Shown here one piece after another: positions 1,896 to 32,917 of a stretch of DNA of 64,000 nt. Positions within the stretch are counted from its first letter, which is position 1; every line of letters begins with the position of its first letter. Origin of the DNA: an uncultured Chloroherpeton sp. GTDB lineage: Bacteria; Bacteroidota; Ignavibacteria; Kapaibacteriales; UBA2268. The notes beneath the pieces are model-generated. The model ran no database searches. It was not told the origin of the DNA and was given only the letters and a program-made list of their open reading frames with translations. The stretch lies in NCBI GenBank assembly GCA_964500435.1, contig CAZCNL010000010.1, forward strand, positions 1,326 to 65,325, read 5' to 3'. The translations under genes and the position numbers were made by a program.

Positions 1896-3065
1896 ATGAA
1901 AAAGATTTATTTAATAATATTTTTTATACCAATTTTGTTGAAAAGCACTGTTCCAGAAATACCTGAATTTGATTACGAAAAAATTATAAATTACGATATA
2001 TATTCTGATAATAGAACAGTCTGGGAAGTTGGCTTTTATGATTTAAAATCTTTTTATCTCTTAGTTCCAAATATATCTATTAAATTTCCAACAAGAGACG
2101 ATTTTACAAAAGGTAGCTTTTTTATTGCACCAACATTATTGGGGAAAGATGGTTCTCTAATAAAAATAACAGAAACACGAAGAACAGGCACATATTTTGA
2201 TTCATTGGCCGATACAGCTCATATTTTCTCTTATGTCCTTTCTGACGAAAATAAAATAAGAATTATTTGCAAGCGAGGATATCCAACATATTTGAGTTAT
2301 TCTTTCAAATCACACCCACTGATATTTGATTTTAATTACAACTTAGAATTGCAAAAAGTAAAAACAGACACAACTTATTTCCATCCGAATTATGGATCAT
2401 ACTTAGTTATAAAAGATGGACATTATTATTTTGGATACAACGACCTTAAATTCTTGCAAGATTCGAATGGATATGTATTAAAACGGTGGGGTGAGTATTA
2501 TATTAAGGAATATAAAGAGACTGATAATTATTTAGAAGATATGCATAAAGACATAAAATTAAAATTCCCCTCTGATACCGTAGATACATTGTTACGAGAA
2601 TTAATGAATGAATTTACATTTGGAATACAAAAGTATCCGAATGAAGGACAAATATCAGCATATTTTTACTTTAAAGACACAACCGGCAAATTATACCAAA
2701 GATTATGCTATTTCGATAAAGAAGGAAATTATTTGTATTGTAATAAAGAAAAATTGCCAACAGTCATTATAACAGGTTCGATTTATGATAAAGATGAAAA
2801 TGCATATACATTTAATCGCAATCTTGATAAAAGTGAAAGTACTCCACCAACGTTAATAAAATATGATAATAAAGGCAATGTAATATGGGAAACAGCATTA
2901 CCATTGGATTTAAAGGAAAATGATAGCTTAAAAGTATATATTTTTCGAAACAATATAGTAGCAAAATTTTTAGATTCGAATCACATCATAGTATTTTATT
3001 CAAAATATTATTATGGTCCCGATAAATCAAGGATACTTTTCCCTCGTTTGTCGAAGAAAAAATAA
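1896..3065 (+). pseudogene. 3'-truncated tandem paralog of 269-1891, lacking the T9SS CTD
   Basis: Long identical blocks with copy 1 up to ...YYGPDKS (nt 3030), then unrelated sequence and a stop 11 codons later. Confidence 0.8.
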
Positions 3066-3199
3066 CTTACGGTGCAACCGCAGCATTACGCAACCTGCTT
3101 TTCGACGGTGATTACAAGTATAAAGACATTATACGCCCTGCTGTAACAATCAAGCAGTCTTATTCCGTAACCTTTGCTCAACCATCTCTTAAGAAATAA
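3032..3199 (+). pseudogene. Start-less 55-codon C-terminal remnant of a probable phage gene
   Basis: Frame DTFPSFVEEKITYGATAALRNLLFDGDYKYKDIIRPAVTIKQSYSVTFAQPSLKK* opens at the junction, has no start codon and is followed by a hairpin. Confidence 0.55.
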
Positions 3200-3266: not shown

Positions 3267-4430
3267 ATGAACGAAGAAATAATATTGATAAATGTATCAG
3301 ACATTGCTTCGCACCCGAAGCAAGAAGAAATTTACGGCGAAATGAGCCTCGAGCCCGAATTCATCGCATCAGTCAAAGATGATGGTATCTTAAATCCAAT
3401 CATAGTAACCTATTCAAATCTATTTGGCGGGATTTCTGATTGCAAATACACGAGTATATCAGGTCATCGCAGACTTGCAGCTTGCAGGGAATTGAATATT
3501 GAACAAATTCCTGCTATTATAAGAGAATATAATTCAGCCGAAGATTCTGTAAAATCTCTCCTTGCTCTAAACTTCCAAAGAGAGAAAAATGACACTCAAA
3601 GAATAAATGAATTTTTGGCATACAAGCAAATATTGTGCCAAATCGGCAAAAAGCACAAGGGCAAAGGTGTTTACACTGACACTGTATTTGATAATGATGA
3701 GTTTTCGACACTTGTCAAAAACTTAAAAATCGACCCTCAGCGACCCTTAAATTCGACAGATATTTTGAAAAATATTTGCGGTTTTGCAGAAAGAGAGCAA
3801 AAATATATGACTGTAATTTTTGATGCTGATTATCAGCCTCGAACAATCGAAAAACTTACAAAATTAGGACTTTCGCTCGATGACCATAATGCTTTGCTGA
3901 GTTTTTGGAATGATATACGAACTGAAGTAACTTCGAAGCAACGAACACTTAAAAATGCGCACGATGCAATCAAGTCAGCAATTAATATGTACGCTGCAAA
4001 GCTCGAAGAGCAGAACAAAAAGCCTGCAAAAAAAGCTACGCCGGACAAACAAAAGCCAAAAGTAGCGGCAGAAGTGCCAAAACCAAAAGTAGCGGTAGAA
4101 GTGCCGAAACAAGCCAAATTTGTGTATCTGTCCGGACCGATAAGCAATAATAATAAATACGTCGATGACTTTGCGAAAGCAGAGAAGGCAGTAAAAGATT
4201 TATTTCCTTCAAATTACAAGGTTATCAATCCTGCTAAGTTTTCAATCGATAAAACGGGAGACGAACATGTAGACTGGATTAAATACATGGCAGAGGAAGC
4301 GATACCGCAACTACTGTCAGAAGCATGCGATGCCATTGCGATGCTCAAAGGCTGGGAGAATTCGAAAGGAGCGTCAGTTGAACATGCGATCGCAAAAGCG
4401 ATGGACTACACGATTGTTTATTTAACTTAA
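3267..4430 (+). CDS. ParB/Srx N-terminal domain protein fused to a C-terminal DUF4406 / nucleoside-deoxyribosyltransferase-like domain
   Basis: N-term SVKDDGILNPIIV...ISGHRRLAACRELNIEQIPAII; C-term VYLSGPIS...F...E...VINPA...CDAIAMLKGWENSKGASVEHAIAKAM. Confidence 0.75.
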   Translation: MNEEIILINVSDIASHPKQEEIYGEMSLEPEFIASVKDDGILNPIIVTYSNLFGGISDCKYTSISGHRRLAACRELNIEQIPAIIREYNSAEDSVKSLLALNFQREKNDTQRINEFLAYKQILCQIGKKHKGKGVYTDTVFDNDEFSTLVKNLKIDPQRPLNSTDILKNICGFAEREQKYMTVIFDADYQPRTIEKLTKLGLSLDDHNALLSFWNDIRTEVTSKQRTLKNAHDAIKSAINMYAAKLEEQNKKPAKKATPDKQKPKVAAEVPKPKVAVEVPKQAKFVYLSGPISNNNKYVDDFAKAEKAVKDLFPSNYKVINPAKFSIDKTGDEHVDWIKYMAEEAIPQLLSEACDAIAMLKGWENSKGASVEHAIAKAMDYTIVYLT

Positions 4431-4443
4431 CCGGGGTGGTTTA

Positions 4444-4692
4444 ATGTTTTGTCCGAAATGTTCAAGTGATAATTGGTCTGTAATCAAAAAGTATTCTTTT
4501 CGTCGTTTTGTTGAAGGAAAAGGCTGGGTTTACTCTGATGAATATGATACACGTAGATTGCTCTGCAATAACTGCATGAGTGTCTTTTTGGTTGAATCTA
4601 AAATCGTATTCAAGGAGGAATTTGATGAACTAAAACACAAAAAGAGAATCACTGTAGTTCACAAATCACCATTCGACGAGGATGCGAAATGA
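4444..4692 (+). CDS. Zinc-ribbon protein (Ogr/Delta- or NrdR-N-like), possible late-transcription activator
   Basis: CPKC...RRLLCNNC..F.VE two-CxxC pattern. Confidence 0.5.
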   Translation: MFCPKCSSDNWSVIKKYSFRRFVEGKGWVYSDEYDTRRLLCNNCMSVFLVESKIVFKEEFDELKHKKRITVVHKSPFDEDAK

Positions 4693-5681
4693 AAGAATTT
4701 TTAAAAGCAGTGAAAGAGTTGGTTGAAAGACTTTACAAAGAAGGGCGCCCGGGCGACATTAGCAAAGAAATCAAAGCTTTAGCAAAACAATACAAAATCG
4801 GCGAGCAAGGTTTGAGAGAAGCTAAGAAAATACAGAATGCTTACCAAAGCAATTTGGAAGATGAATTTATCAAAAAATTCACGAAAGAATTTACTGTAAG
4901 TGAATTTGATAGAATTTCTGAAAACTTTCAAAAGAATGTAGTCGAGTCCGTTAAGCGTTCCATGCGTTCATCTGACCCTGATATAGCTGTAAAAGCAGTA
5001 AAAAGGCTGGGTGTTGTAGCAGAAAGGCATTTACGGACAGTTGTCCAAACAGCAAAGGACGGCATCAACCAGGCTCAGGTAATCGAAGATGCCAAGAACT
5101 CAGGCATTAAGCAAATGCGGTACGTCGGCCCTAAAACAAGTCTTCGCCCTTTTTGTTTCAAGCACGTTGGTAAAATCTACACTATCGAAGAAATCAAAAA
5201 TATGAGCAATGGTCAAGGTTTGCCCGTATTGTACTTTGGCGGCGGCTATAACTGCCGTCACAGGTGGGTCGCTGTGGAAGGCGAGGAACAGAATGGAGTT
5301 TTTCTCCACGAAAGTTTTAAGGCGAAATACGGCAGCAATGTGCCGAAAGTAGTTGCAGAAGAAATAAAAGGAGCCGAATTACTTGCCGCTCACGGTAAAG
5401 TGGAAATCAATCCTTACCGTCAGGAGCAAGAAAAAGCCGATACAGATTTGTTCTTCGACGGCAAACCTGCGCAATTGAAACAAACAAATTCGCAAAACGA
5501 AAATATTTTTAGACAAAAACTTCGGGATGCTCGTCATCAAGCTGATAACGTAATAATAATTTTTAACGGTTTGCCTGATGAATCAAGGTCGATAGAAATC
5601 GCAAAGAATTGGCTTAGAAAGCATCCCGAAAAGAAATTGATAATATACAATAAACAAACTCAAAAATTTAAGGAGATTTAA
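4689..5681 (+). CDS. MuF/minor capsid (head morphogenesis) protein with a C-terminal CdiA-like PD-(D/E)XK toxin domain
   Basis: R.FC...GK.Y...GGYNCRHRW MuF-type motif, then DTDLFFDGKPAQLK...FRQKLRDARHQADNVIII. Confidence 0.7.
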   Translation: MKEFLKAVKELVERLYKEGRPGDISKEIKALAKQYKIGEQGLREAKKIQNAYQSNLEDEFIKKFTKEFTVSEFDRISENFQKNVVESVKRSMRSSDPDIAVKAVKRLGVVAERHLRTVVQTAKDGINQAQVIEDAKNSGIKQMRYVGPKTSLRPFCFKHVGKIYTIEEIKNMSNGQGLPVLYFGGGYNCRHRWVAVEGEEQNGVFLHESFKAKYGSNVPKVVAEEIKGAELLAAHGKVEINPYRQEQEKADTDLFFDGKPAQLKQTNSQNENIFRQKLRDARHQADNVIIIFNGLPDESRSIEIAKNWLRKHPEKKLIIYNKQTQKFKEI

Positions 5682-5961
5682 AATGAAATACGCAGACTGG
5701 GTAGATGATTTTGAAAGCGGCACAATCGAATGGAATATCGAAACTGCTTGTTATGCTTTGGGCGCCATCGAGTCTGATCGCCTCCACGGTGATTTAACCG
5801 ATGAAGAAGCTGAAAAACTTAAAAAAATGCTTCCGTTGACAAAGGAAGATCTCGCTAAAATTGATTTTTAAACAAAAGGAGATTTAAAATGAAATACGGT
5901 GACTGGGTAGATGATTTTGAAAGCGGCACAATCGAATGGAATATCGAAACTGCTTGTTATG
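5670..5961 (+). repeat. 86-bp direct repeat (5670-5755 and 5876-5961), period 206 bp
   Basis: AAGGAGATTTAAAATGAAATACG(CA/GT)GACTGGG...GCTTGTTATG; only 2 mismatches. Confidence 0.95.
5683..5871 (+). CDS. Small acidic protein, candidate cognate immunity protein 1
   Basis: 62 aa; starts 1 nt after the toxin stop; RBS AGGAG. Confidence 0.55.
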   Translation: MKYADWVDDFESGTIEWNIETACYALGAIESDRLHGDLTDEEAEKLKKMLPLTKEDLAKIDF

Positions 5962-6077
5962 TGCTGGGTATTCTTTTCTCAGATTATATAAATCATCAGA
6001 TAACCGAAAAGGAGTATGACGAACTGGTAAAAATGGTGCCTATCTCTAAAGAAGTCAAAGACAAAATTAACTGGTGA
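5889..6077 (+). CDS. Small acidic protein, paralog of 5683-5871, candidate immunity protein 2
   Basis: 62 aa; first 24 residues identical except one; C-terminal half divergent. Confidence 0.55.
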   Translation: MKYGDWVDDFESGTIEWNIETACYVLGILFSDYINHQITEKEYDELVKMVPISKEVKDKINW

Positions 6078-6460
6078 ACAATATGAGAAGAGATTTAGAT
6101 TTGGTAAGACATCTGCTGCTTAAGCTCGAAGGAGAGCAATCTTATAAGGATGCAAAAGAATCCGCAGCAGATGCAGCTTTGCTGACAAATACGAAGATTA
6201 CGAAAAAAACTGTCCATGAACATTATTTATGGCTTTTTGATGCGGGATTTATTGAGGCTCAGCTCATCGCAAGAGCTGGCGGTTACAGCGTTGTTTATCC
6301 TCGCAGGCTTACATGGGCAGGCGCAGAGTATTTGGATTGCGTACGAGATTCGAAAATCTGGAGAGAAACCAAAAGTAAACTTTCGGCAGTTGGCTCGGCT
6401 TCGCTTCCGATTATCCAAAAATTAGCAGAAAGCATAATCAAAAAAGTGCTTTCCATTTAA
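6074..6460 (+). CDS. DUF2513-family protein (start may be the ATG at 6083)
   Basis: MRRDLDLVRHLLLKLE...RLTWAGAEYLDCVRD..IW..TK signature. Confidence 0.8.
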   Translation: MNNMRRDLDLVRHLLLKLEGEQSYKDAKESAADAALLTNTKITKKTVHEHYLWLFDAGFIEAQLIARAGGYSVVYPRRLTWAGAEYLDCVRDSKIWRETKSKLSAVGSASLPIIQKLAESIIKKVLSI

Positions 6461-6480: not shown

Positions 6481-6507
6481 AAAAGCCCTCAAACGAGGGC
6501 TTTTTTT
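6481..6507. terminator. Bidirectional intrinsic terminator between convergent operons
   Basis: AAAAGCCCTC-aaac-GAGGGCTTTTTTT. Confidence 0.85.
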
Positions 6508-7051
6508 ATGAACGCGCTTTCAAATCCGTTTTAATTCTGCTAACGGCTTCATCAATGAATTTAGGGTCGTTCAGAACCAATCCTGCTGCATAATCTAAAA
6601 GCCTATTTTCGTTTTCGTCGGTAAGCCCGAAGAACTTCCAAAGCCGCCTACTTTTGCCCACTCCCGAAACGTTAAACCAGAACGCTTTTTGTGCCTGTTC
6701 TGCCGAAGTGAAGTAAATAACGCTACTTGTATCGGATTCTGCTCTCGCAGAAATTGATTTTAGCATTGAACCTGACCATTGTAGGTAATCGCCTTCAGGA
6801 TTTCTGTTGTTCATCACTCTCCAATCTTTGTAACCACCTGTAACGATCTGCCAAAGTTTGCCATTTGCATTAAAAGGTTTCAATCTTCCTTCTTTTTGCA
6901 GTGTTTTGAGCCCTTTCAAATTTCGTTTTGCGGGCATAGCAAAAGGTTTTGTGGAGTATTTGTAAGATTTGCCATCTACATCAACTCCTTTTTCAATTTG
7001 CTCGTTAATAAGCTCGATAGCATAAAAAGCGATCTTCTCGATTATACTCAT
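6506..7051 (-). CDS. Phage virion morphogenesis protein (Mu gpG-like)
   Basis: G.D.DG...LQWSGSMLKSI...R.W.FFGLTDENE resembles the virion morphogenesis family; directly after the portal. Confidence 0.55.
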   Translation of the reverse strand: MSIIEKIAFYAIELINEQIEKGVDVDGKSYKYSTKPFAMPAKRNLKGLKTLQKEGRLKPFNANGKLWQIVTGGYKDWRVMNNRNPEGDYLQWSGSMLKSISARAESDTSSVIYFTSAEQAQKAFWFNVSGVGKSRRLWKFFGLTDENENRLLDYAAGLVLNDPKFIDEAVSRIKTDLKARS

Positions 7052-8160
7052 TGCGGGAGAGCTCCATCAAATATTTCATCGCCTGCAGCGGGCACTTTAA
7101 AGCCAATCTTTTCGTAAACCTCAGTTTTAACAAGCGGGATGCCTGCCGCAAGCGCTTCACGAATAACAGCGACGTTGGACTCATAATCTGCTTGAACATC
7201 TGTGATAAAATTGAATCTGTAAGGTGGGGCTTCATTGCCATAATTTAAAAACCAATCCCATTTGACGAGCTTATTGCACGCTTTTTCTGCGATTTTTAAA
7301 TCGAACCACATTAAATCATCGGTAACTAATTTTTGAACCTGGAGCGCAGCTCTGGAACCTGTTTTTGCCGGCAATTCAGCAACGTTCGCCTGACCGACAA
7401 TCGCTATGGCGATTGAGCTATCTAATAAATCGGAAGCATCTTTGAACGAGCTTGCAGAACCAGATTGCACAATAGAGTGAAAATTAAAGTCCACTAAATC
7501 ACTTGTCATAAGGTAGTTGTTTTTAACTGCACTAATCAACGCATTCTTAGCCTCGGTTATTTCTTCCGCAGAAGCACCATGCTCAATTCCGTGAATAATA
7601 CCTTTTAACTTTCTGTTGAAGTTCAGCCACTCGAGAAGATTGTCGTTTCTATATATCTCTAACAGCCCAACCGACCTCATTTGACCGCCGACTCTATGCG
7701 ATGAATCCGCAATATAAAATTGGTCTTCACCACGAATATTTCTAACATCATTGACAAATTCAAAAACCGTATCATTTTTGAAGCCTGTAAGTGAGGACAA
7801 AGGCAGCTGTCGGGCAGTTTTAGGTGTAACGCCGGCTTCGGTAGTTTCCCAGCCCAATTCAACGCAAAAACAGCCAAAGAGACTAAAATCAACCGAAGCA
7901 AAAATAATCACCTGAAGAGCATCTCGTAGTCTTTCCATTGCTTCCTGGGCTGCTTCGACGAACTCGTTTGATTTTGGCTTCAAATCAAAATCCCAGCTAG
8001 CAACTGCGGCACGGCGGGTATTGATATAACCACCCAATTTGGTGTTGATGGACGAGAACCATTCGAGAGTTTCAAGCAATTTCCTTGCGTCTCTATCTTC
8101 GGGAAGAGTGCGGTCTAAATTTCTGAGCATTGTTAGGTAAGTTTTTGGATCGGGATACAT
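7048..8160 (-). CDS. Portal protein (DUF935 / Mu gp29-like)
   Basis: 370 aa; R..AV..W.F.L, ...ISIAIVGQ......GSRA..QV...V..D, GIPL...EVYEKIG...P motifs. Confidence 0.7.
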   Translation of the reverse strand: MYPDPKTYLTMLRNLDRTLPEDRDARKLLETLEWFSSINTKLGGYINTRRAAVASWDFDLKPKSNEFVEAAQEAMERLRDALQVIIFASVDFSLFGCFCVELGWETTEAGVTPKTARQLPLSSLTGFKNDTVFEFVNDVRNIRGEDQFYIADSSHRVGGQMRSVGLLEIYRNDNLLEWLNFNRKLKGIIHGIEHGASAEEITEAKNALISAVKNNYLMTSDLVDFNFHSIVQSGSASSFKDASDLLDSSIAIAIVGQANVAELPAKTGSRAALQVQKLVTDDLMWFDLKIAEKACNKLVKWDWFLNYGNEAPPYRFNFITDVQADYESNVAVIREALAAGIPLVKTEVYEKIGFKVPAAGDEIFDGALPQ

Positions 8161-8948: not shown

Positions 8949-10535
8949 TTAAAAATAATAATCCTGAACAACAAAAGGTTTCAACAAAACTCCTCTACGT
9001 CTTCGGACTAATCTGCGTTCATTCAGCAATTCTTCGGCACAAATTACAGCATCCGGACCGTCATCGAGTTTGCCTGCCTTTTTACCTGAAAAAGCAAAAA
9101 GCTGGCTCAGGAAATTAACTGTGTCGGGCTTGCCAGCAAGACTTGATAAAATAAAAACTTTCTTTTCATTCCAAATCGCTTGAAAGTTCTTAGCTAAATC
9201 ATCAACGTGATACCTGCAATATTTGATGTACGGTAATTTTACGCCATAGTGATTTTCAAAACCTCTTACGAATGCTGTCCAGGTGGATTCTTGCGAAACG
9301 TTGCCGTCCATTCCCAAAACTCTGTGATGCTTGGGATTATACATATTTATAACTGACAAAAGCAATTTGTTTGGGTCAGAAAACGACCTACAAACTATAT
9401 CTGTGATATATCTGTTACCGGTTGAAGGGCTGTAAAGATAAGATAATATGGCGGTTGAATCACCTTTTCGTTTCTTGCTCAGGTTCGGGTCGACATAAAT
9501 CACGCCCGCACAATCCTGAGGAATAGAATCAATCCAGTTTAAACCATCTCTATTAATTAAATAACCATCGGGTGGGATTGGATTTTGTTGAAAATCGCCC
9601 TGCCATTCGGATTCGGAAGCTGCTTTAACCATACCTTTCAATTCTGTTTCAGTTTTCGCAGGATACCTATCTTTCCAAAGCGGAGAAAAGCTAAGTTTTC
9701 CTTTATGCTGGATTTCTCTCCAAGCTTTGAAAACTTTAACCCGCCAACTTGCTGGCAGTTGCCCTGCATTTTGCAAAATCAGCAACTGATTTAAAGCTCC
9801 TCTTTCGTCCGAATTGTTGCCAAGAATTTGCAAGACTCCATTATTTGCCATTGACTGGGCTGTTTCCCGAATTAATTTTATCCTTGCTTCTACTTGGTCT
9901 TCGCCCATACTTGAGGCTGAGGTTTCAATATCATCACCAAGAATAAACTGCGGACGTTCAAACATAAATGTCGCACCTCGTGCAGAATGCCCTTCTGAAA
10001 ACGGTTGCAAACAAATCAATTTATTTTTTTTGTTTTTATCTTTTACTCTGATAATTACTTGGTCGGCATTGTCTTCGAGAAATTCTGCTTCAAAATCGAA
10101 CTGTATTCTTTCATCTTTAATCAGTCTCGTTATATCTTTTAGAATATGTCTCGCACCTGGCAATATTGCCGATAGAGTACCTCCGAAGTTAATTCGACCG
10201 GTTAGAATTAACCAACAGAAGAATTTTTTTAGAGTTGCAGTTTTACCGTGTTTTCGAGGGCCAAGAATAATTTCGACACCAGGAGTAAGAAAACCTTTGA
10301 CTAGTTCTTTGTGAAAATCCGAAGGTTTTGAATAGCCATCGGAATAAGCCTCAGGTTTAAAATAAATGGAATCAAATTTCCAAAAATCAGAAAAAGATAA
10401 TTCCAGGCGTTTTTCCTTGGATTTTTTCGAGGCATCTTCACCCGACCACGGTTCGTTCTTCGCAAGTGATAATCTAAGTTCAGTTTCTTGCGAAAATTTA
10501 TTCATTTCGTGTTCTAAAGCTGAGAAATTTTGCAT
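8949..10535 (-). CDS. Terminase large subunit
   Basis: Walker A GPRKHGKT, Walker B ILGDDIE, nuclease YVDP...DSTA and DDGPDA. Confidence 0.9.
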   Translation of the reverse strand: MQNFSALEHEMNKFSQETELRLSLAKNEPWSGEDASKKSKEKRLELSFSDFWKFDSIYFKPEAYSDGYSKPSDFHKELVKGFLTPGVEIILGPRKHGKTATLKKFFCWLILTGRINFGGTLSAILPGARHILKDITRLIKDERIQFDFEAEFLEDNADQVIIRVKDKNKKNKLICLQPFSEGHSARGATFMFERPQFILGDDIETSASSMGEDQVEARIKLIRETAQSMANNGVLQILGNNSDERGALNQLLILQNAGQLPASWRVKVFKAWREIQHKGKLSFSPLWKDRYPAKTETELKGMVKAASESEWQGDFQQNPIPPDGYLINRDGLNWIDSIPQDCAGVIYVDPNLSKKRKGDSTAILSYLYSPSTGNRYITDIVCRSFSDPNKLLLSVINMYNPKHHRVLGMDGNVSQESTWTAFVRGFENHYGVKLPYIKYCRYHVDDLAKNFQAIWNEKKVFILSSLAGKPDTVNFLSQLFAFSGKKAGKLDDGPDAVICAEELLNERRLVRRRRGVLLKPFVVQDYYF

Positions 10536-11376: not shown

Positions 11377-11931
11377 ATGGACAAATTAAAAGAATTACTT
11401 AGATCGCTTTTTGCAAACGACCCCGAAAAACAAAAGATCGTCGATTCTTTAGATATTAAACCTTTACATGATGAGCGGGAACCATCGCTAGAAAATAAAA
11501 CTAGCGACGAGAATAGCAGAATTGCTAAACTTGAAGCAATGGTTGCAAAGCTTCTGGGATATAACAAGAATTTAGTTGATTTGGTTACTGCGATGACAGA
11601 AAAAGAAAAAAAGCGCGAAGAAACGATTAAAACTCAATCCGAAAAGGAACGTGCTGAGCAAATTAGCAAGATTCTCGAAGATGCAGTAAAGGACACCAAA
11701 ATCCCGGCAAAAAATGATGAAATAAAGAACACTTACAAATCCATTCTTGAAAAAGATTTTGAGAATGGGAAGAAAATAATCGAAGCCTTACCAAAGCTCG
11801 GCTCAAATCCATCGCAGAACGGGCAGGGCTCGACTTATAAAACAGAAAGTGGAAAACAATCAGGACTTAACAGCTCACTTAAGCCCGAATTTGCTAAGTA
11901 CGTCGAGAGCGTACCGACCAGCATAGAATAG
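11377..11931 (+). CDS. Capsid scaffolding protein
   Basis: Charged coiled-coil protein directly upstream of the capsid gene; A..DGKI-like VKDTKIP segment. Confidence 0.6.
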   Translation: MDKLKELLRSLFANDPEKQKIVDSLDIKPLHDEREPSLENKTSDENSRIAKLEAMVAKLLGYNKNLVDLVTAMTEKEKKREETIKTQSEKERAEQISKILEDAVKDTKIPAKNDEIKNTYKSILEKDFENGKKIIEALPKLGSNPSQNGQGSTYKTESGKQSGLNSSLKPEFAKYVESVPTSIE

Positions 11932-11964: not shown

Positions 11965-12957
11965 ATGGCAACTTTAGCATCAACCTCGAGAATTAACAGT
12001 CCATCAGGACGTGGACGTCAGGCTTTGGGGCTTTTACTTCAGGAATCACCTTTACTTCAATTCCTTGAAGCCCAATCAGGTTGGGAATTACTTGGTACCG
12101 CATTCAACTGGCAGCCTGAAGATACGTCAGAAAAGACGATTGCCGCCCGTGCGATCGGAGGCGGCGTGCAGAATACAGCTCAGGATGTTTCGCCAACTTC
12201 ATTTGTTGCAGGTGCCTTATCTGCTTATAACGCTAATTTCGATATTGACGTATCTTATTTAGCTGATGCAGCTCAGAAGTTAGTAAATATGGATTCGTTT
12301 ATGCTGAAAGAACTCCGGCGACGAGTCAGAGCTTTGGCGACAACATTAGAATCTGAATTGATGAGGGGAACAGGCTTAAATAATACGATGAAGGGCTTAA
12401 AGACAATTCTCGATGGAGTAACATCGCTACCAGGTTACCCAGGTATTTACCGAGTATCGGATGCTCAGGAAATCACAGGAGGAACAACCAAGTCGTGCGA
12501 CTTGACCGCCAGAACCAATGATGCCGCATTTATAGAGTGGTTCGGTTTGCAGCTTGCAAAAGTTAAAAATCCGGCAGGTATTATATGCAGTCCGCTGATG
12601 GCTGCGAGACTTGATACTATCGGCAGAACGCAATATTTATCTGGTGAAACCAGAGATTTATTCGGCAAACCAATTAAAACCTTTGCCGGTATTCCAATTA
12701 TTCCTTTGCTTGCTTCATCAATTTTAAACAATGAGCCTGACAATACTCCAACTACTCCGCTTGAGGTTACCACATCAATATACATTCTTGCGCCTGGCGA
12801 GCAATCATTATCTGTTGCAACGAACTCAGGGCTTGAATATACCGATTTTGATATACAGTCCGATAAGCAGTCCAACCGTGAAAAGGTTGAGGTTCGTGCA
12901 GCCTGGAAAATAGAAACGCCTGAATCAATCTTAAGAATTAGAAACTTCAAGGTGTAG
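11965..12957 (+). CDS. Major capsid protein (HK97 fold, inferred)
   Basis: 330 aa; LLQESPLLQFL, ELMRGTG....GL..I, GKPIKTFAGIPI patterns; follows the scaffold. Confidence 0.75.
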   Translation: MATLASTSRINSPSGRGRQALGLLLQESPLLQFLEAQSGWELLGTAFNWQPEDTSEKTIAARAIGGGVQNTAQDVSPTSFVAGALSAYNANFDIDVSYLADAAQKLVNMDSFMLKELRRRVRALATTLESELMRGTGLNNTMKGLKTILDGVTSLPGYPGIYRVSDAQEITGGTTKSCDLTARTNDAAFIEWFGLQLAKVKNPAGIICSPLMAARLDTIGRTQYLSGETRDLFGKPIKTFAGIPIIPLLASSILNNEPDNTPTTPLEVTTSIYILAPGEQSLSVATNSGLEYTDFDIQSDKQSNREKVEVRAAWKIETPESILRIRNFKV

Positions 12958-13507: not shown

Positions 13508-14083
13508 ATGAATAATTTAGAAAAAATCGGCACCGAAGCAATCAGTTTTGCAAAGAGACATTTGGTTATGATTGCGATTATATTCGCATCAATTTTAGGT
13601 TATTGGCTAATTAGCCAATTTCAGACAAGCAATTCGGAAAAGCTGAATAAGCTTTATTCCGAAATGCAACAATCGCAGGATTCAATTGCCAATACAATTG
13701 AAAAAAAATACGCTGGGGCAAACATTCCCCGGCACTTAATTGACTTAGAAGCATCGGACGCAATCCAAAAATACACTTTAACACCAGTTTATCAAAACAA
13801 AGAGAACGAAGCCCGGAAATTAGAAGCTGAAGCAAATTCTGAAAATCCATATAAGGGGTTGTTGATAGCTACAGGAATCTTAATTATGAGTGCTTTGCTA
13901 ACTGGTTTAATATTGTATTGTATGACCGCAATTAACTTCATCGATATTATCGTTAGAGGCGAAGACTCGAAGTATTCCGAAGCTGAAGCGAAATCGACAA
14001 TTGATTTAATTGGGCTCATATTCAAATATTGCGTTATTGCATTCACTTTGATCGAAAGCGTAATATTGTTTGTAGGCAAATAA
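13508..14083 (+). CDS. Three-TM membrane protein in the lysis cassette
   Basis: Three hydrophobic segments; TAATG overlap with the endolysin start. Confidence 0.5.
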   Translation: MNNLEKIGTEAISFAKRHLVMIAIIFASILGYWLISQFQTSNSEKLNKLYSEMQQSQDSIANTIEKKYAGANIPRHLIDLEASDAIQKYTLTPVYQNKENEARKLEAEANSENPYKGLLIATGILIMSALLTGLILYCMTAINFIDIIVRGEDSKYSEAEAKSTIDLIGLIFKYCVIAFTLIESVILFVGK

Positions 14084-14580
14084 TGAAAAGACTTGCGTTA
14101 TTGGCTCTTTTGCTGGTGATATTTGCTTTCAAAGCTAAAGCACAAGCCGAAATGACTACATCAGCTTACGGAAGAAAATTCATCGAATCCTTTGAAGGGT
14201 GTAGATTAAAAGCATATAAATGCCCGGCAGGAGTTTGGACTATCGGGATAGGCAACACAACGAAAGCAAAGCCCGGGAAAATCATTACTTATCAGATTGC
14301 ACAGCAGTATTTGCAGGAAGATTTGAAACGATTTGAGAGGCACATAAATGCTAATGCTACAAGAAGATTGAAATGGTATGAATTCGACGCATTAACTTCA
14401 TTTTGTTTCAATGTCGGATATAGATTCAAGGGTGATATAGCTATGTATGTAAATAATAATTTAACTGAGAAAGTGGTATCCAAACTGAAACTGTATATCC
14501 ATGCCGGACAAAAGACGCTCGCCGGATTGGTTAGGAGGCGTTTAGCAGAAACTGAACTATACAAAGGAAATTATGAATAA
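14083..14580 (+). CDS. GH24 lysozyme endolysin with an N-terminal signal peptide
   Basis: FEGCRLKAYKCPAGVWTIGIG, FDALTSFCFNVG, GLVRRRLAE; ATG at 14083 overlaps the upstream stop. Confidence 0.9.
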   Translation: MKRLALLALLLVIFAFKAKAQAEMTTSAYGRKFIESFEGCRLKAYKCPAGVWTIGIGNTTKAKPGKIITYQIAQQYLQEDLKRFERHINANATRRLKWYEFDALTSFCFNVGYRFKGDIAMYVNNNLTEKVVSKLKLYIHAGQKTLAGLVRRRLAETELYKGNYE

Positions 14581-15335: not shown

Positions 15336-16817
15336 ATGGCAATACCATTTTTAAACGATATAGATTTATCAGGAGCATTGCAAATTTTAGCAGGTACAGG
15401 CTACCTGGAAATGAATAAAACCGAGTTAAGAAATGCGGTGATTCAGAATCTCGCATCAGAACCAGCGTCGCCTGTAGCTGGACAAGTTATCTATAACACT
15501 GCAAAGACAGATACTGCGAAAGGAAATGGAAAATTTGGCTATCGGACAGCAACATCGTGGGTTTATCCCGATATGGAGAAATCTGTTTATGATACCAATA
15601 ACGACGGTATCGTAGATTACGCAGCAAATTCGGCACTATTAAATAGCCAAACACCAGCGTGGTATTTGAATAGAGCAAATCATACTGGTTCTCAATTAGC
15701 ATCTACAATTTCTGATTTCACAGAAGCATCGCAAGATGCAGTGGGTGCTGCGTTTGTAAGCACGAACTCAATTAGTCCAACTTACAACGACTCAGCGAAC
15801 CAAATGACTTGGAATGTTGTTGTAGTTGCCGGCGGCGGTATCGAAATAGTTGCCGGCGGTATTCAATTAACAAGTATAGTTACAGCAGGCACTTATACGA
15901 AGGTAACAGTTGACGCAAAAGGAAGAGTTACCGCAGGTGCAAATTTAACATCCGGTGATTTGCCAGCTCATACGCACGTTTATACAGATATAACAAATTT
16001 CAATACAGGAGTCAGGACAAATAGTTTAGACCAGTTAGCAGCTCCAGCTGCTGACGTTACCTTTAACAGCAAGAAAATTACAAATTTATCAGACCCGACT
16101 TCGCCGCAAGATGCAGCAACAAAGAATTATGTAGATAATGCAATCCAGGGAATTGACGCAAAGTATTCTGTTCGTGCCGCTACAACTGCCAACATTACTT
16201 TGTCTGGCACTCAAACAATTGACGGAATAGCACTCGTTGCCGGCGACAGATGTTTGGTGAAAAATCAGACAACACCGGCACAAAATGGGATATATGTTGT
16301 GTCAGCATCCACTTGGAGCCGTGCAACTGATATGGACACGTGGGCGGAAGTAGTAGCGGCATATTGTTGGGTTGAACAAGGCGCAACCCAAGGAGATACT
16401 GGTTGGTATTGCACATCTGATGCGGGTGGCACATTAGGGACAACAGCGATTACCTGGACGCAATTCAATTCCGCTGGCACAATTACAGCAGGCGTTTCGT
16501 TGCTGAAAACCGGTAATGTTATAGATTTGCAATACGACCCTACTACAATGGCGGTTAATGGGTCTAATCAAGTAACGCTGGCTACTGCTTACAAGAATAA
16601 AAAAGTAACGGGCGCAATTACGGGTGATGCATCGGCAACATCATTTTCAATTACTCACAATTTGGCTAATAAAGATGTAGTTGTCAATGTTTACGAAGCA
16701 ACTACTGGTTACACAGTATTCCCACTTATCGAAAGATTTGATACGAATACCGTGAAGGTGAGTTTCAAAACTGCACCTGCAACAGGTAAAGTATATAACG
16801 TTGTAATTTTAGGATAA
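15336..16817 (+). CDS. Phage fiber protein (head or tail fiber)
   Basis: GTYTKVTVDAKGRVTAG, LSDPTSPQDAATKNYVD and VRAATTANITLSGTQTIDG motifs; Thr/Ala/Gly-rich. Confidence 0.7.
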   Translation: MAIPFLNDIDLSGALQILAGTGYLEMNKTELRNAVIQNLASEPASPVAGQVIYNTAKTDTAKGNGKFGYRTATSWVYPDMEKSVYDTNNDGIVDYAANSALLNSQTPAWYLNRANHTGSQLASTISDFTEASQDAVGAAFVSTNSISPTYNDSANQMTWNVVVVAGGGIEIVAGGIQLTSIVTAGTYTKVTVDAKGRVTAGANLTSGDLPAHTHVYTDITNFNTGVRTNSLDQLAAPAADVTFNSKKITNLSDPTSPQDAATKNYVDNAIQGIDAKYSVRAATTANITLSGTQTIDGIALVAGDRCLVKNQTTPAQNGIYVVSASTWSRATDMDTWAEVVAAYCWVEQGATQGDTGWYCTSDAGGTLGTTAITWTQFNSAGTITAGVSLLKTGNVIDLQYDPTTMAVNGSNQVTLATAYKNKKVTGAITGDASATSFSITHNLANKDVVVNVYEATTGYTVFPLIERFDTNTVKVSFKTAPATGKVYNVVILG

Positions 16818-22615: not shown

Positions 22616-22641
22616 AAGCAAGGGAGTAAGCTCCCTTGTTT
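22616..22641 (-). terminator. Hairpin just upstream of the tape measure RBS, with its U-tract on the minus strand
   Basis: AAGCAAGGGAG-taag-CTCCCTTGTTT, preceded by an A-run. Confidence 0.45.
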
Positions 22642-22659
22642 CATAAAAGGAGTATTGTG

Positions 22660-25600
22660 ATGGCAAATAATAAAATTCAAATATTGTTAGATTTATTAGT
22701 CAATTTGAAGAGCGACCCTGGTCAAATAAACCAGTTTGTAGCACAAATTGAACAGTCGGCCAAAAAGTTAAATATCAGTATCGATACCGATAAGACAAAG
22801 AAAGCGGTAACCGATATGGTGAAGTCGCTCGATGAAGCTGAGACAGCTTTAAAGCAGATTAATAGCGTCCCGCTCGAAAAACTCGAATTGGAATTTAAGA
22901 ATGTAGAGAGAGCGTCATCTGGTTTTATGGATAGGTTGGCGAAATTTGGTATGATCTCAATGGGCGTTGAGCAATTTACGCAAACTATAAATCAGTTTCA
23001 GCAGCCATTTGCAGAGTTAGATAAGCAGGTGAGGAATATTGGTACTCTTGGCGTGAAAAACTTTCAGGAATTTGCCGATCGTGCAACAGAGCTTTCGATA
23101 TCAGTTCCCGATTCGGCAGTTGCGATAGCCGAGGGTGTATATGATGCCATATCTGCGGGTACAATTAAGGTAAAGGATGGCGTTGCTGATGTTGCAGGCG
23201 GGATGCAGTTTGTCGAAACTGCTTCCAAATTAGCAGCTGCAGGTTTAACCACAACAAAGGACTCTATCAACGGTTTAACATCTGTTATGAATGCTTACGG
23301 GTTAGAAGCCAATCAGGCAGGAAAAGTAGCCGATACGTTTTTTGGAGCCGTAAATGTGGGGAAAACAACAATCCCTGAATTAAATGCATCGTTAGCCCAA
23401 GTGATACCAACGGCGGCGAGTTTCGGAGTAGAATTCGACCAGGTTGCTGCTTCGATAGCTACAATGACAAAACAGGGCACACCGACAGCTCAGGCTGCTA
23501 CGCAGATTCGTGCAGCTCTTGTTGAGCTGGCAAAACCGGGTGCGGAATTAGCTCCAATATTACAAAAAGCGGGTGTTTCGTTGGATTCGTTAAAGAAAGA
23601 AGGGCTGCAGGAATCGTTTAAAAAGATTGGAATAGCTCTTGATTCTACAGGAAAATCAGCAACTCAGGTTTTCGGTTCGGTCGAGGCGGCGTCGGCAGTT
23701 ATGCTTCTATCGGGTAAGAATGCAGCAATGGCAGCAAGCGATTTAGATTTAGTTAAAAACTCTATCGGTTCGACGGATGCAGCATTTGCGGTAGCTTCCG
23801 AAGGGATAGATTCAAAATCTAAAATGCTAATGAACTCCATTCAGGCAGGCTTTAATGAAGCAATGTCGGTTTTGGGGAGTTACGGACAGTTAGCATTATC
23901 TACGGCAGCTCAGGTGGCGCCGCTAATGACATCCTTTACAGGATTAGCAACTTTAATTCCTGCCGGGACTGTAGGGAAGGTAGGAGAATTAGGTAAGACG
24001 ATTTTAACGAAGTTGGTACCGGGCTTGATGGGAGCTGCTACTGCACAAGGTTCGTTGAATGCTGTAATGGGCATGAATCCGATATTTGCTGTTACGTTAG
24101 CGGTGACGGGTTTAGTAGCTGGTTTAAAATTACTTTCAGAGGCACTTCACGAGACTGCACAAGAAAAATTAAAGGATGCAGAATCACAAGATAAACTTAT
24201 CGATAAAGAGATTGAGGCAAAAGAAAAGGAAATTGAGCTTGCAGAATCCAAACAAAAGCTTGTCGAAGAGTTCAAAAATACCGGCGAATCTGCTATGGAA
24301 AATGTCGAAATGATGACCAAATTATCACAAGCTTATCCCGGTGTGATTGATGCTTCAAAATCATATCAAGAAAATCTTGCCGCTCTGTCAGCGGCATCAA
24401 ACAAAACAAAGGAAGACCTTGCAAAGTTGACCACAGAAATCGGAACCCTTGCCGAGAAAAAACTCGACCTCCAACTAAAAATATCTAACCTCAAAGTTGA
24501 TGTGGAAAAACAGAACATTGAAAATACTTTAAAAGATGCATTCAAAATCTGGGGACTTTCCGATGCAAGTGAGTGGATTTTCGGTACTAGCACAGCTAGA
24601 CAAATGGGCGAGCAAATTATAAAACCTTATACAGATGCTATTTCTAATGCAAAGAATTCAAAAGAACTTGAAAAAGCTTCCCTCGATTTTCAAATGGCAA
24701 TATTCAATTCGAAGGATTTCGAAAAATTAACAGCAGAAGAAAAAACCAAGATGCTCAAAGGCATCAATAAAATGGTTGAAGCAAGAAAATCTGCCATGGA
24801 TAGTGCAAATCAAAATGCAGGTAAAGACTTTGAAGTTCTTAAAGACAGTGGTATGCAAACAGGTCAGATAATTGATTTCCTTGCAAAGAAATACAACGCC
24901 ACAAAAGAAGAAATTAAAGGCATAATCGATGCACAGGAAAGATCGAAACAGGAAACAATTGAGCAGACTGCAAGCGTGGAAAGTTTGGCGGCGGCCTGGA
25001 ACAAAGTAAAAGCTGATGCAAAAAAATCTCTGGATGAAAACGCAGGTGCTATGGCTGAATTGCTTTCGAAAGGAAAAGAGAATTGGACTCAGGAAGATTT
25101 TGATAAGTGGGACCAGTATAAGAAAGCAGGCTTCAATGCTCATAAAGCTATCGTGGAGCAAGCTAAAATTGATGAACAGGTGCAAAAAGCATTAGGTATT
25201 ACTGTCGCTAAAAATTCAAGTGAAAAGAAATCGCAGTTAGAGTTACTGACAAAGGAATTTGAGCTTTACAAACAAAAAGCAAAGTATGATAGCGATATTG
25301 TTGAATCTGAGAAGCAACTATCATTCATTCTGCAAGAGCGGGAAAAAACTACTTATGATGATTTGGCTGCCCAAGAAAGAAAGATTCAGTTGGCGAAGGA
25401 TGAAAAAGAGAAATTTCTTGAAATTTACAAGGCGTTAGTAAGTGAAAATGAAAGTGGCGGCTTGGACATTTCGCCTAAATTGAAGAAAGAAGATAGGATG
25501 AAATTAGAAAATGATTACAAGCAGATTATTTTGAATTTGAAGAATGAATCGAATAAGGAGCTTGAATTAAAGGCTAAGATAAAATTAGACCAGGAGGAAT

Positions 25601-32898: not shown

Positions 32899-32917
32899 TA
32901 TTAATCATTGTTTTGTT

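Follow-up and report, generated by a model that had tools for sequence, protein, structure and literature searches.

A gene that appears to join a phage minor head protein to a nuclease, followed directly by two small genes for acidic proteins, raises the question of whether it encodes a toxin that travels in virions, a toxin that acts inside the cell that makes it, or no toxin at all. We addressed this question for a locus in a 64-kb stretch of DNA from an uncultured Chloroherpeton sp. (contig CAZCNL010000010.1), hereafter the window, which was compared with related loci (L001 and so on) and homologous proteins (P0011 and so on). Our best explanation is that the toxin gene is the only MuF gene of a siphophage family that has a Mu-type portal and infects Ignavibacteriota-like bacteria. 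We consider it probable that the locus encodes a MuF head protein carrying a CdiA_C-type nuclease toxin, with immunity proteins that recognize the toxin tail, cassettes that recombine, and delivery by the virion. The elements of the predicted module are listed here by position in the window, with lengths in amino acids (aa) or nucleotides (nt).

4689-5681, plus strand: MuF-toxin gene, 330 aa
4689-5273, plus strand: MuF domain (minor head protein of the SPP1 gp7 / Mu gpF type), toxin aa 1-195, ending GGYNCRHRW
5274-5681 including the stop codon, plus strand: predicted C-terminal toxin domain, PD-(D/E)XK, CdiA_C superfamily, aa 196-330, 135 aa
5559-5678, plus strand: toxin tail, aa 291-330, fast-evolving, a helix (298-311) and two strands
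5683-5871, plus strand: immunity-family copy A, 62 aa, isoelectric point (pI) 4.27, net charge -9
5889-6077, plus strand: immunity-family copy B, 62 aa, pI 4.35, net charge -7, predicted four-helix fold

The three open reading frames (ORFs) are real genes rather than chance ones, since they have homologues and low ratios of nonsynonymous to synonymous substitution (dN/dS). The toxin protein has 37 homologues in a 5.8-billion-protein index, and its dN/dS is 0.07 compared with L001, a copy from a different genome that shares 91% identity in coding DNA; for copy B, dN/dS is 0.10 against its closest homologue. A sequence-only reading of this DNA had placed the three genes and quoted motifs from the toxin. 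Its coordinates and the acidity of both small proteins were borne out, and the motifs were located at aa 185-193 (GGYNCRHRW) and aa 251-264 (DTDLFFDGKPAQLK), with HQADNVIII also present. A promoter scan stayed at background level, with 11 found compared to 9.0 expected.

A MuF domain at the toxin N-terminus

Profile matches within the family and comparisons of the modelled structure both identify the toxin N-terminus as a MuF minor-head-protein domain, as had been proposed. Among 20 aligned family members, PF06152 matches nine and PF04233 matches five, with a best E-value of 3.3e-8. The AlphaFold2 (AF2) model of the full-length toxin has a mean predicted local distance difference test score (pLDDT) of 87.5, and its top Foldseek matches in BFVD, a set of predicted viral structures, are labelled "minor capsid protein" and "phage head morphogenesis domain" (E-values down to 7.6e-7). 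One siphovirus "CDI toxin-like protein" is also among the best BFVD matches, and IMG/VR viral contigs contain at least 397 relatives of the region around the GGYNCRH motif.

A search with the MuF hidden Markov model (HMM) found the toxin gene to be the sole MuF gene in the window, and the viral contig L052 carries a 205-aa MuF orthologue with no toxin domain at the equivalent position. These two observations indicate that the toxin gene is the phage's regular MuF gene plus a C-terminal addition. A 181-aa gene beside the portal gene was considered as the true MuF gene and rejected, as it had neither a Pfam or PHROG hit nor a match to the MuF HMM.

Homologues retain the MuF part and exchange what follows it, with GGYNCRHRW(V)(A/P)V as the common boundary before the variable C-termini. 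The following types of C-terminus were distinguished.

Q-type, CdiA_C-like: the window's type
Canonical PF18451: P0007, P0012, P0020, P0021
Third, nuclease-like domain: P0011, P0022, P0023
Peptidase-like domain containing HEIGH: P0026
GNAT-like domain with RGQGIA: P0027
Another domain: P0028
No C-terminal domain: P0006, P0013-19

Unrelated C-termini on one MuF N-terminus are the defining pattern of polymorphic toxins, and the earlier assignment of the gene to this class therefore stands.

The C-terminal domain resembles CdiA_C nucleases

The sequence-only reading had also proposed a PD-(D/E)XK domain of the CdiA-CT type at the C-terminus. This is largely right, in that sequence profiles and the model both point to a remote relative of CdiA_C (PF18451) with a PD-(D/E)XK fold. 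PF18451 aligns with aa 253-321 of the window toxin (E = 1e-4, 22.8 bits) and matches 12 of the 14 C-terminus-bearing sequences in the 20-member alignment at E-values of 0.01 or lower, the best being 1.2e-8. The AF2 model shows a canonical PD-(D/E)XK core, with helices at 220-232 and 273-280 and strands at 238-240, 254-256, 259-266, and 287-292. When the full-length model was compared with 350,542 PDB chains using Foldseek, the top match was 4g6v_A (probability 1.00, TMt 0.54, 128 columns), and the second-best was YaeQ, a member of the PD-(D/E)XK family. The 4g6v structure is the CdiA-CT of Burkholderia pseudomallei 1026b, a Mg-dependent tRNA nuclease (tRNase) that acts on tRNA-Ala through the catalytic residues E187, D214, D223, and K242 (PMC9086364).

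Q-type C-termini, which carry glutamine at position 262, are rare. A full-length phmmer search of 1.84 billion cluster representatives returned 19 proteins, most of them fused to MuF; four were short, two of these too short to reveal the upstream part. A search of the 5.8-billion-protein index with the C-terminus alone gave no return, which reflects a limit of the word index and is not evidence, as phmmer found the 19.

The fold family leaves the substrate unfixed. The closest sequence family, which its sources name "tRNA nuclease CdiA C-terminal" (PF18451), and the closest structure (4g6v) are both tRNases, and no DNase-type CdiA-CT structure was among the Foldseek hits. On these grounds of sequence and modelled structure, we rank tRNase as the most likely reading of the substrate, ahead of DNase. 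It is unlikely, although by no means far-fetched, that the toxin is instead a DNase, a general RNase, or an rRNase: identity to 4g6v is only 12%, the make-up of the active site is unlike that of both tRNases, and PD-(D/E)XK CdiA-CTs include Zn-dependent DNases (TA271, YPIII) beside the tRNases (1026b, E479) (PMC9086364).

An acidic residue appears to have moved within the active site

The alignment covered 29 C-termini, of which 25 belong to the window's type and 4 are canonical. The conserved set in the domain comprises E225, E239, D251, D253, Q262-x-K264, and Q284, of which E225, D253, and K264 are invariant wherever the residue is present and Q284 is kept in 28. At position 262, which corresponds to the (D/E) of (D/E)-x-K, 24 sequences have Q and 5 have E. 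Position 239, in strand beta-1, mirrors this: every Q262 sequence has E there, and every E262 sequence has V, H, or I; an acidic residue is found at one of the two positions in every case, never at both and never at neither. P0045 is an E262 sequence nested in the Q-type clade, so the swap between 239 and 262 happened at least twice.

Together with a dN/dS of 0.02 in the catalytic core, the covariation of 239 and 262 argues for a functional site with a relocated acidic residue. The alignment suggests that the acidic group moved from 262 to 239 and was not lost, and E239, with D251, probably supplies the group that canonical members hold at 262; the two residues are extras specific to the Q-variant. 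E225, D253, and K264 are the likely catalytic set. Relocation of acidic residues is known in the PD-(D/E)XK superfamily, as in the "migration" of the Cfr10I type. The Q-x-K variant that had been noticed in the window was thus recovered across the family, always with E239, while the D-x-D...E-x-K pattern that the sequence-only reading ascribed to CdiA nucleases was inexact, as canonical members have S/T-x-D, with a single D, plus E-x-K.

A substitution of this kind could also mark a domain that is catalytically dead or non-toxic, such as a nucleic-acid-binding aid to packaging or ejection, with the small ORFs as unrelated phage genes. The replacement of the canonical E in 24 of 29 C-termini, the position of the window protein below the Pfam threshold, and reports that MuF/gp7 proteins bind DNA (PMC12226406) fit such a domain, but the invariance of E225, D253, and K264, the acidic residue always held at 239 or 262, and the low dN/dS of the core do not. 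The strict pairing of C-termini with small ORFs, the orphan cassettes, and the immunity genes that outlive broken toxins, all described below, are signatures of a toxin-immunity system, and we regard a dead domain as very unlikely.

The small downstream genes pair with the type of toxin

The 62-aa proteins share the motif (E/D)WN.ET.CY..G ... LTEEE..L...P(I/L)TKEE..INW, and a profile search of the family gave only 13 clusters, of 53-66 aa. In every locus examined (the window, L001/L021, L002, L003, L004/5, L013/14, L015/16, L017-19, L020, and L022), a member lies 1-15 nt 3' of a Q-type toxin gene or fragment. Canonical E-type C-termini are instead followed by a different family of 76-81 aa (L008/9, L010, L012, L027, L048), and divergent Q-type subclades by other acidic helical ORFs of 72-82 aa. 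The immunity HMM matched beside Q-type toxins only, and the two families never cross toxin types except in L003, where a Q-type C-terminus and its immunity gene precede a 77-aa gene whose identical counterpart in the sister phage L010 comes after an E-type toxin. This layout indicates that a cassette of C-terminus and immunity gene displaced the old C-terminus, while the old E-type immunity gene stayed. Immunity genes are also intact beside N-terminally truncated or broken toxins at L017, L018, and L020. The proposal that the two downstream genes in the window are immunity-type partners is upheld by this linkage, which is specific to toxin type across loci.

The AF2 model of copy B has a four-helix fold (pLDDT 92.9). 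Its best match among PDB folds had an E-value of 1.4, with no CdiI among the hits. Pfam, PHROG, and NCBIfam scans gave no significant family match for the 62-aa proteins, and none of these libraries names the family; PADLOC defence models produced zero hits against seven genes of the neighbourhood. Linkage and modelling support the view that the small ORFs are a new four-helix immunity-type family, partners of Q-type toxins.

An 82-aa ORF that follows the divergent toxins of L006 and L007 was tried as a further member of the 62-aa family and, as the alignment was unconvincing, excluded from the profile. The Q-type (62-66 aa) and E-type (76-81 aa; L010 8038-8271) families share the helix pattern G..I......(I/L)T..E...L, and hhalign gave a 47% probability for their relationship (pairwise E = 2e-4). 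From this similarity, the two families may be remote homologues that diverged with their toxins.

Toxin tails and immunity genes are exchanged together

The two immunity genes in the window are marked by a direct repeat.

5669-5754, plus strand: direct repeat copy 1, 86 nt, from AAG GAG ATT TAA (the toxin end, which doubles as a Shine-Dalgarno sequence) through the first 72 nt of copy A
5875-5960, plus strand: direct repeat copy 2, 86 nt, with a 14-nt relic of the toxin 3' end before copy B

Copies A and B match at 83 of 86 nt over the repeat (14 nt upstream and the first 72 coding nt) and then at 61 of 117 nt (52%), an abrupt drop that looks like a recombination junction. L020 carries a toxin with the same tail, its C-terminus 90% identical to that of the window, together with just one immunity gene, which shares 90% identity with copy B and 56% with copy A. 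As the L020 gene resembles copy B and not copy A, copy B is the likelier cognate partner, and we consider it probably the ancestral cognate gene rather than the toxin-adjacent copy A. For the C-terminal half of copy A, no close relative was found, nor was its toxin partner; copy A is likelier an extra allele.

The toxin itself evolves at two rates. When the window is compared with L001, identity over the catalytic core (aa 196-290) reaches 98%, with a dN of 0.013 and a dS of 0.53, while the tail (aa 291-330) has a dN of 0.16 and a dS of 1.19; the immunity proteins are only 55-60% identical. Motifs in the tail track those in the central helix of the immunity protein, as follows.

Tail motif LIIYN: immunity central helix GIL(F/L)SDY
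Tail motif LYFYN: immunity central helix GALEFEY
Tail motif IYIYN: immunity central helix GLIDQL
Tail motif IYLYN: immunity central helix GWID.L

The divergent tail and its tracking with the helix indicate that the exchanged, co-evolving unit is the last ~40-75 residues of the toxin plus the immunity gene, and we infer that the tail is the probable immunity-binding surface.

Arrays at other loci contain displaced pieces of such units. At L002, the cognate immunity gene is followed by a DUF2513 fragment, an orphan toxin fragment that starts at KPAQLK, and a second, slightly different immunity gene; the first half of the orphan fragment is near-identical to the main toxin, while its tail is different. 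L015/16 lies among housekeeping genes and comprises, in order, a truncated toxin, an immunity gene, a full toxin, a second immunity gene, and a 55-aa fragment with a divergent toxin tail; a divergent immunity gene and one more toxin fragment complete the array. L022 carries an inverted orphan C-terminus and two immunity genes.

The module lies in a truncated prophage and persists outside phages

The region from ~3032 to 27021 is phage-derived, with a GC content of ~0.40 compared to ~0.30 in its flanks. Head, lysis, and tail genes span 6506-27021, and the window genes that flank the prophage carry sorting domains of the type IX secretion system (T9SS), which fits a host from the Fibrobacterota-Chlorobiota-Bacteroidota (FCB) group. 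The following prophage genes were identified around the module.

3032-3190, plus strand: C-terminal remnant of an early phage gene (tblastn with aa 93-145 of a 147-aa L004 protein, 64% identity)
6506-7051, minus strand: conserved 181-aa gene, no Pfam or PHROG hit
7048-8160, minus strand: Mu-type portal, 370 aa (PF06074, E = 3.8e-29)
8949-10535, minus strand: large terminase
11377-11931, plus strand: protease-like gene
11965-12957, plus strand: major head protein
14029-14580, plus strand: lysozyme
15336-16817, plus strand: fibre-like gene, 493 aa (PHROG, E = 1.4e-73)
22636-27021, plus strand: tape measure, 1461 aa

The toxin gene on the plus strand and the portal gene on the minus strand are convergent, separated by the immunity genes, a DUF2513 gene, and the 181-aa gene. 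This layout, in which the MuF-toxin gene ends the early operon and faces the portal operon, is kept in L003, L004, L006-8, L010, L011, L053, and L054. Related phages have ~6 kb more at the left, including a repressor, a cro-like gene, and a gene for a ~635-aa early protein, all three of which are absent from the whole 64 kb of the window. The early-gene remnant, comprising the last ~53 codons of the gene that precedes ParB, runs into the end of a host ORF at 1896-3065, and a scan of the ORFs up to about position 32900 showed no integrase. With its left arm missing, the prophage is truncated and probably defective.

Near-identical modules also occur outside phages. A toxin that is 95% identical lies in a "Bacteroidetes bacterium" metagenome-assembled genome (MAG), on a 2.2-kb island between the genes for fructose-1,6-bisphosphatase (FBPase) and AccA, with flanks that have no similarity to the window; similar remnants were found in Rhodothermus profundi and several Ignavibacteriota MAGs. 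Survival of the module without phage structural genes is not expected from a purely virion-dependent function. Given the left-truncated prophage and these modules outside phages, "virion-delivered" is uncertain as a description of the window's toxin.

The pair might instead act inside the cell that carries it, in addiction or abortive infection, stabilizing itself or poisoning related phages; the MuF domain could then engage the capsids or portals of incoming relatives, or load the toxin into superinfecting heads. Islands of ~2 kb that sit among housekeeping genes and hold an intact or near-intact module, away from any portal or terminase gene (L001/L021, L002, L012, L015/16, L017-19, L020), are consistent with such a role, as are the strong purifying selection on the L001 toxin (dN/dS 0.07), the loss of the regulatory and replication arm from the window's prophage, and the three loci that adjoin CRISPR-Cas genes. 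However, no PADLOC defence family matches the genes scanned, and the status of the toxin gene as the only MuF gene in intact phage contigs, with toxin-less orthologues in the same place, argues for a structural role in the head. Remnants would also be expected from selection for immunity combined with slow decay, and several remnant toxins are truncated; moreover, at least 3% of muf genes lie in prophage remnants according to Jamet et al. (PMC5576092). We hold action inside the cell to be doubtful. In a stronger version, the pair would be selfish or defensive in its own right and would survive its phage, kept by purifying selection in ~2-kb chromosomal islands; it would change immunity specificity by exchanging just the final ~40-75 residues of the nuclease along with the immunity gene, and might load into the capsids of related incoming phages as a Trojan horse against them, beyond any service to its own virion. 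This version seems to us similarly improbable. The repeated survival of the module without a phage, together with the defective prophage, nevertheless keeps the intracellular alternative alive as an outside chance.

A model for virion delivery and the evidence that weighs against it

The model that we favour is patterned on SPP1 gp7 and on the MuF-toxin model: the MuF domain would bring a small number of toxin molecules into the phage head, and these would be ejected along with the DNA when a new cell is infected. Packaging through MuF and ejection into the next host are the published hypothesis for this class (PMC5576092). The 135-aa nuclease domain, which among solved structures is closest to the Mg-dependent CdiA-CT tRNase from B. 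pseudomallei 1026b, would then cleave tRNA, or less likely another nucleic acid, unless immunity is present or quickly expressed. In the producer cell, a 62-aa acidic four-helix protein would neutralize the toxin, probably by binding its last ~40 residues. Tail and immunity gene would diverge and recombine as one cassette, giving rise to arrays such as the pair in the window, in which copy B is probably cognate and copy A may be an allele left by, or available for, tail switching. Nuclease activity, substrate, toxicity, neutralization by binding, packaging, and delivery are thus all predictions of this model. As the left arm is lost in the window, this prophage could deliver the toxin only with the aid of a helper phage, and delivery may have ceased.

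Several observations weigh against this model. Taken alone, the window toxin is sub-threshold for the MuF profiles (PF04233, E = 0.017; TIGR01641, SPP1-gp7, E = 0.0017) and, at 22.8 bits, falls under the Pfam gathering score of 26.6 for CdiA_C. The Foldseek match to 4g6v, at 12% identity, has an E-value of only 3.3e-3 with the full-length model as query. HMMER searches of PDB sequences with the single protein, a full-family profile, and an E-type C-terminus profile reached only spurious matches to designed repeats and ankyrins, so the link to 4G6V rests on structure comparison and Pfam. With Q in place of the canonical E of E-x-K, activity is a prediction. Pairwise identities of C-termini and immunity proteins are correlated (Mantel r = 0.75, p = 0.0006), but this correlation is confounded by physical linkage, and either copy might be the one that neutralizes the toxin. 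The position of the toxin gene opposite the portal strand, at the end of the early operon, is unusual for MuF and makes co-expression with head genes uncertain. Finally, the prophage in the window is truncated, and intact toxin-immunity modules occur at at least six other chromosomal sites that lack phage structural genes.

Comparison with known toxin systems

The window's system shares with MuF polymorphic toxins (Zhang et al. 2012, PMC3482391; Jamet et al. 2017, PMC5576092) the MuF N-terminus and variable C-terminal toxin, the small ORF directly 3', an apparent association with prophages, and the portal and terminase genes nearby. Jamet et al. (2017) listed cd13442, the tRNase domain of the 1026b CdiA-CT, among the toxin domains on MuF proteins (PMC5576092). 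Because the class was already known, and MuF toxins with this nuclease type were described in 2017, the general picture is unchanged. The window differs in its host, as MuF toxins were reported to be concentrated in Firmicutes (PMC5576092), whereas this host belongs to the Ignavibacteriota in the FCB group. A muf gene is as a rule placed directly 3' of the portal gene (PMC5576092), but in the window it is on the other strand, where it closes the early operon and converges with the head genes. A Q-x-K C-terminus and a new immunity family further set it apart. Orphan arrays of tail plus immunity gene and tiny chromosomal islands are apparently not described in the main text of PMC5576092, in which we looked for "orphan".

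The CdiA-CT(II) of B. pseudomallei 1026b (CdiA_C; PF18451 / cd13442, 4G6V) is the top structural match, and the window protein differs from it in having Q for E262 and the additional residues E239 and D251. The domain is borne by a phage head protein in the window and by a CdiA filament of the type V secretion system (T5SS) in 1026b. The immunity protein differs from the 1026b CdiI as well, being a 62-aa four-helix protein; as copy B has no significant match to a solved structure in the PDB, it has none to CdiI.

The arrays also recall the orphan cdiA-CT/cdiI modules of contact-dependent inhibition (CDI) and the orphan rhs-CT/rhsI modules, which were reportedly described by Poole et al. in 2011 and Koskiniemi et al. 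in 2014. Both kinds of array have displaced 3' fragments of toxin genes with immunity genes downstream (here at L002, L015/16, and L022), and the fragments retain homology to the main gene that would permit recombination. Unlike in those modules, the exchange unit of the MuF loci can be the last ~45-75 residues of the nuclease and not the whole C-terminus, and in the window just 14 nt of the toxin 3' end remain before copy B.

The Apk2 MuF toxins, with IapK and Aph1, likewise have two protective genes after the toxin gene (PMC12226406). IapK, a binding-type immunity protein, is mostly specific to its cognate Apk2 toxin (PMC12226406). In that system, the two genes are unrelated, one acting by binding and the other by hydrolysis of the product, and the toxin is a (p)ppApp synthetase (PMC12226406), whereas in the window both genes belong to a single family of paralogues and follow a nuclease-like toxin. 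Compared with all of these systems, the phylum, the Q262/E239 rearrangement of the active site, and the 62-aa immunity family appear to be new, as do the exchange of sub-domain cassettes with orphan arrays in MuF loci, the non-canonical gene position, and the persistence in minimal islands.

The locus and its ~20 relatives form a compact and well-defined system in a phylum in which such toxins are not known to have been studied. Among polymorphic toxins, to our knowledge, transport inside phage heads has been proposed for the MuF family alone, and its biological role is unproven. The repeated survival of the module after decay of the phage bears on whether such toxins act from virions or inside the cell. 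The natural rearrangement of the active site (E239/Q262 compared to a non-acidic residue at 239 with E262) is amenable to testing with point mutants, the immunity protein is tiny, confidently modelled, and of a new family, and the natural chimeras would map immunity specificity to the last ~40 residues of the toxin.

Accessory genes and genomic neighbourhoods

The genes and signals that immediately flank the module are as follows.

3267-4430, plus strand: ParB_N and DUF4406 fusion (ParB_N aa 5-99; DUF4406 aa 286-385)
4444-4692, plus strand: zinc-ribbon gene, CxxC...CxxC, 82 aa (weak Zn-ribbon Pfam hits)
6074-6460, plus strand: DUF2513 gene, 128 aa (PF10711, E = 3.8e-21)
6481-6504: hairpin, a perfect A4-GCCCTC-loop-GAGGGC-T4 between the convergent DUF2513 and 181-aa genes

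The stop codon of the zinc-ribbon gene overlaps the toxin start (ATGA), an arrangement of translational coupling. Its homologues lie directly 5' of the MuF gene, both in phages and in several of the remnants, at L001, L002, L004, L006, L010, L012, L052, where the MuF gene is toxin-less, and L054. The upstream fusion links ParB_N to the nucleoside 2-deoxyribosyltransferase-like DUF4406 by a lysine/proline-rich repeat, KPKVAAEVPKPKVAVEVPK, and is unusual; L001 retains just the DUF4406 part, as a 99-aa ORF.

The DUF2513 gene is found downstream of the module in L001 (truncated), L002 (as a 33-aa fragment), L003, and L010, and probably in L020, where the DNA match continues into the start of the window's gene. 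It is absent from L004-L008 and L013. A role for DUF2513 as a third component, for immunity or regulation, was weighed and dismissed, since many loci lack the gene; judging from its distribution, it is probably an accessory gene outside the toxin system. By its sequence, the hairpin beyond it is likely a bidirectional terminator.

Within the structural region, the 493-aa protein encoded between the lysis and tail genes received varying PHROG labels (head decoration, virion structural, tail fibre). No recognizable tail-tip genes follow the tape measure gene, which raises the possibility of truncation or an unconventional layout at the right end of the prophage as well. Directly after the tape measure gene, on the opposite strand, lies a gene for a 1544-aa protein with DUF11 and T9SS sorting domains (27399-32033), with an intermediate GC content of 0.36-0.39.

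CRISPR-Cas genes neighbour the module at L008 (1-1059, Cas6/HD), L012 (1-3911, type I-E cas5/cas1/cas2), and L020 (2-884, cas2, preceded by an uncharacterized 185-aa ORF). This adjacency could be due to chance, clustering in defence islands, or a preference of integration. Restriction-modification and GmrSD/HNH genes flank the module at L003 (4136-6698 and 12406-13488), L005 (1-4496), and L017 (7556-9481), which suggests that the remnants sit in variable or defence regions.

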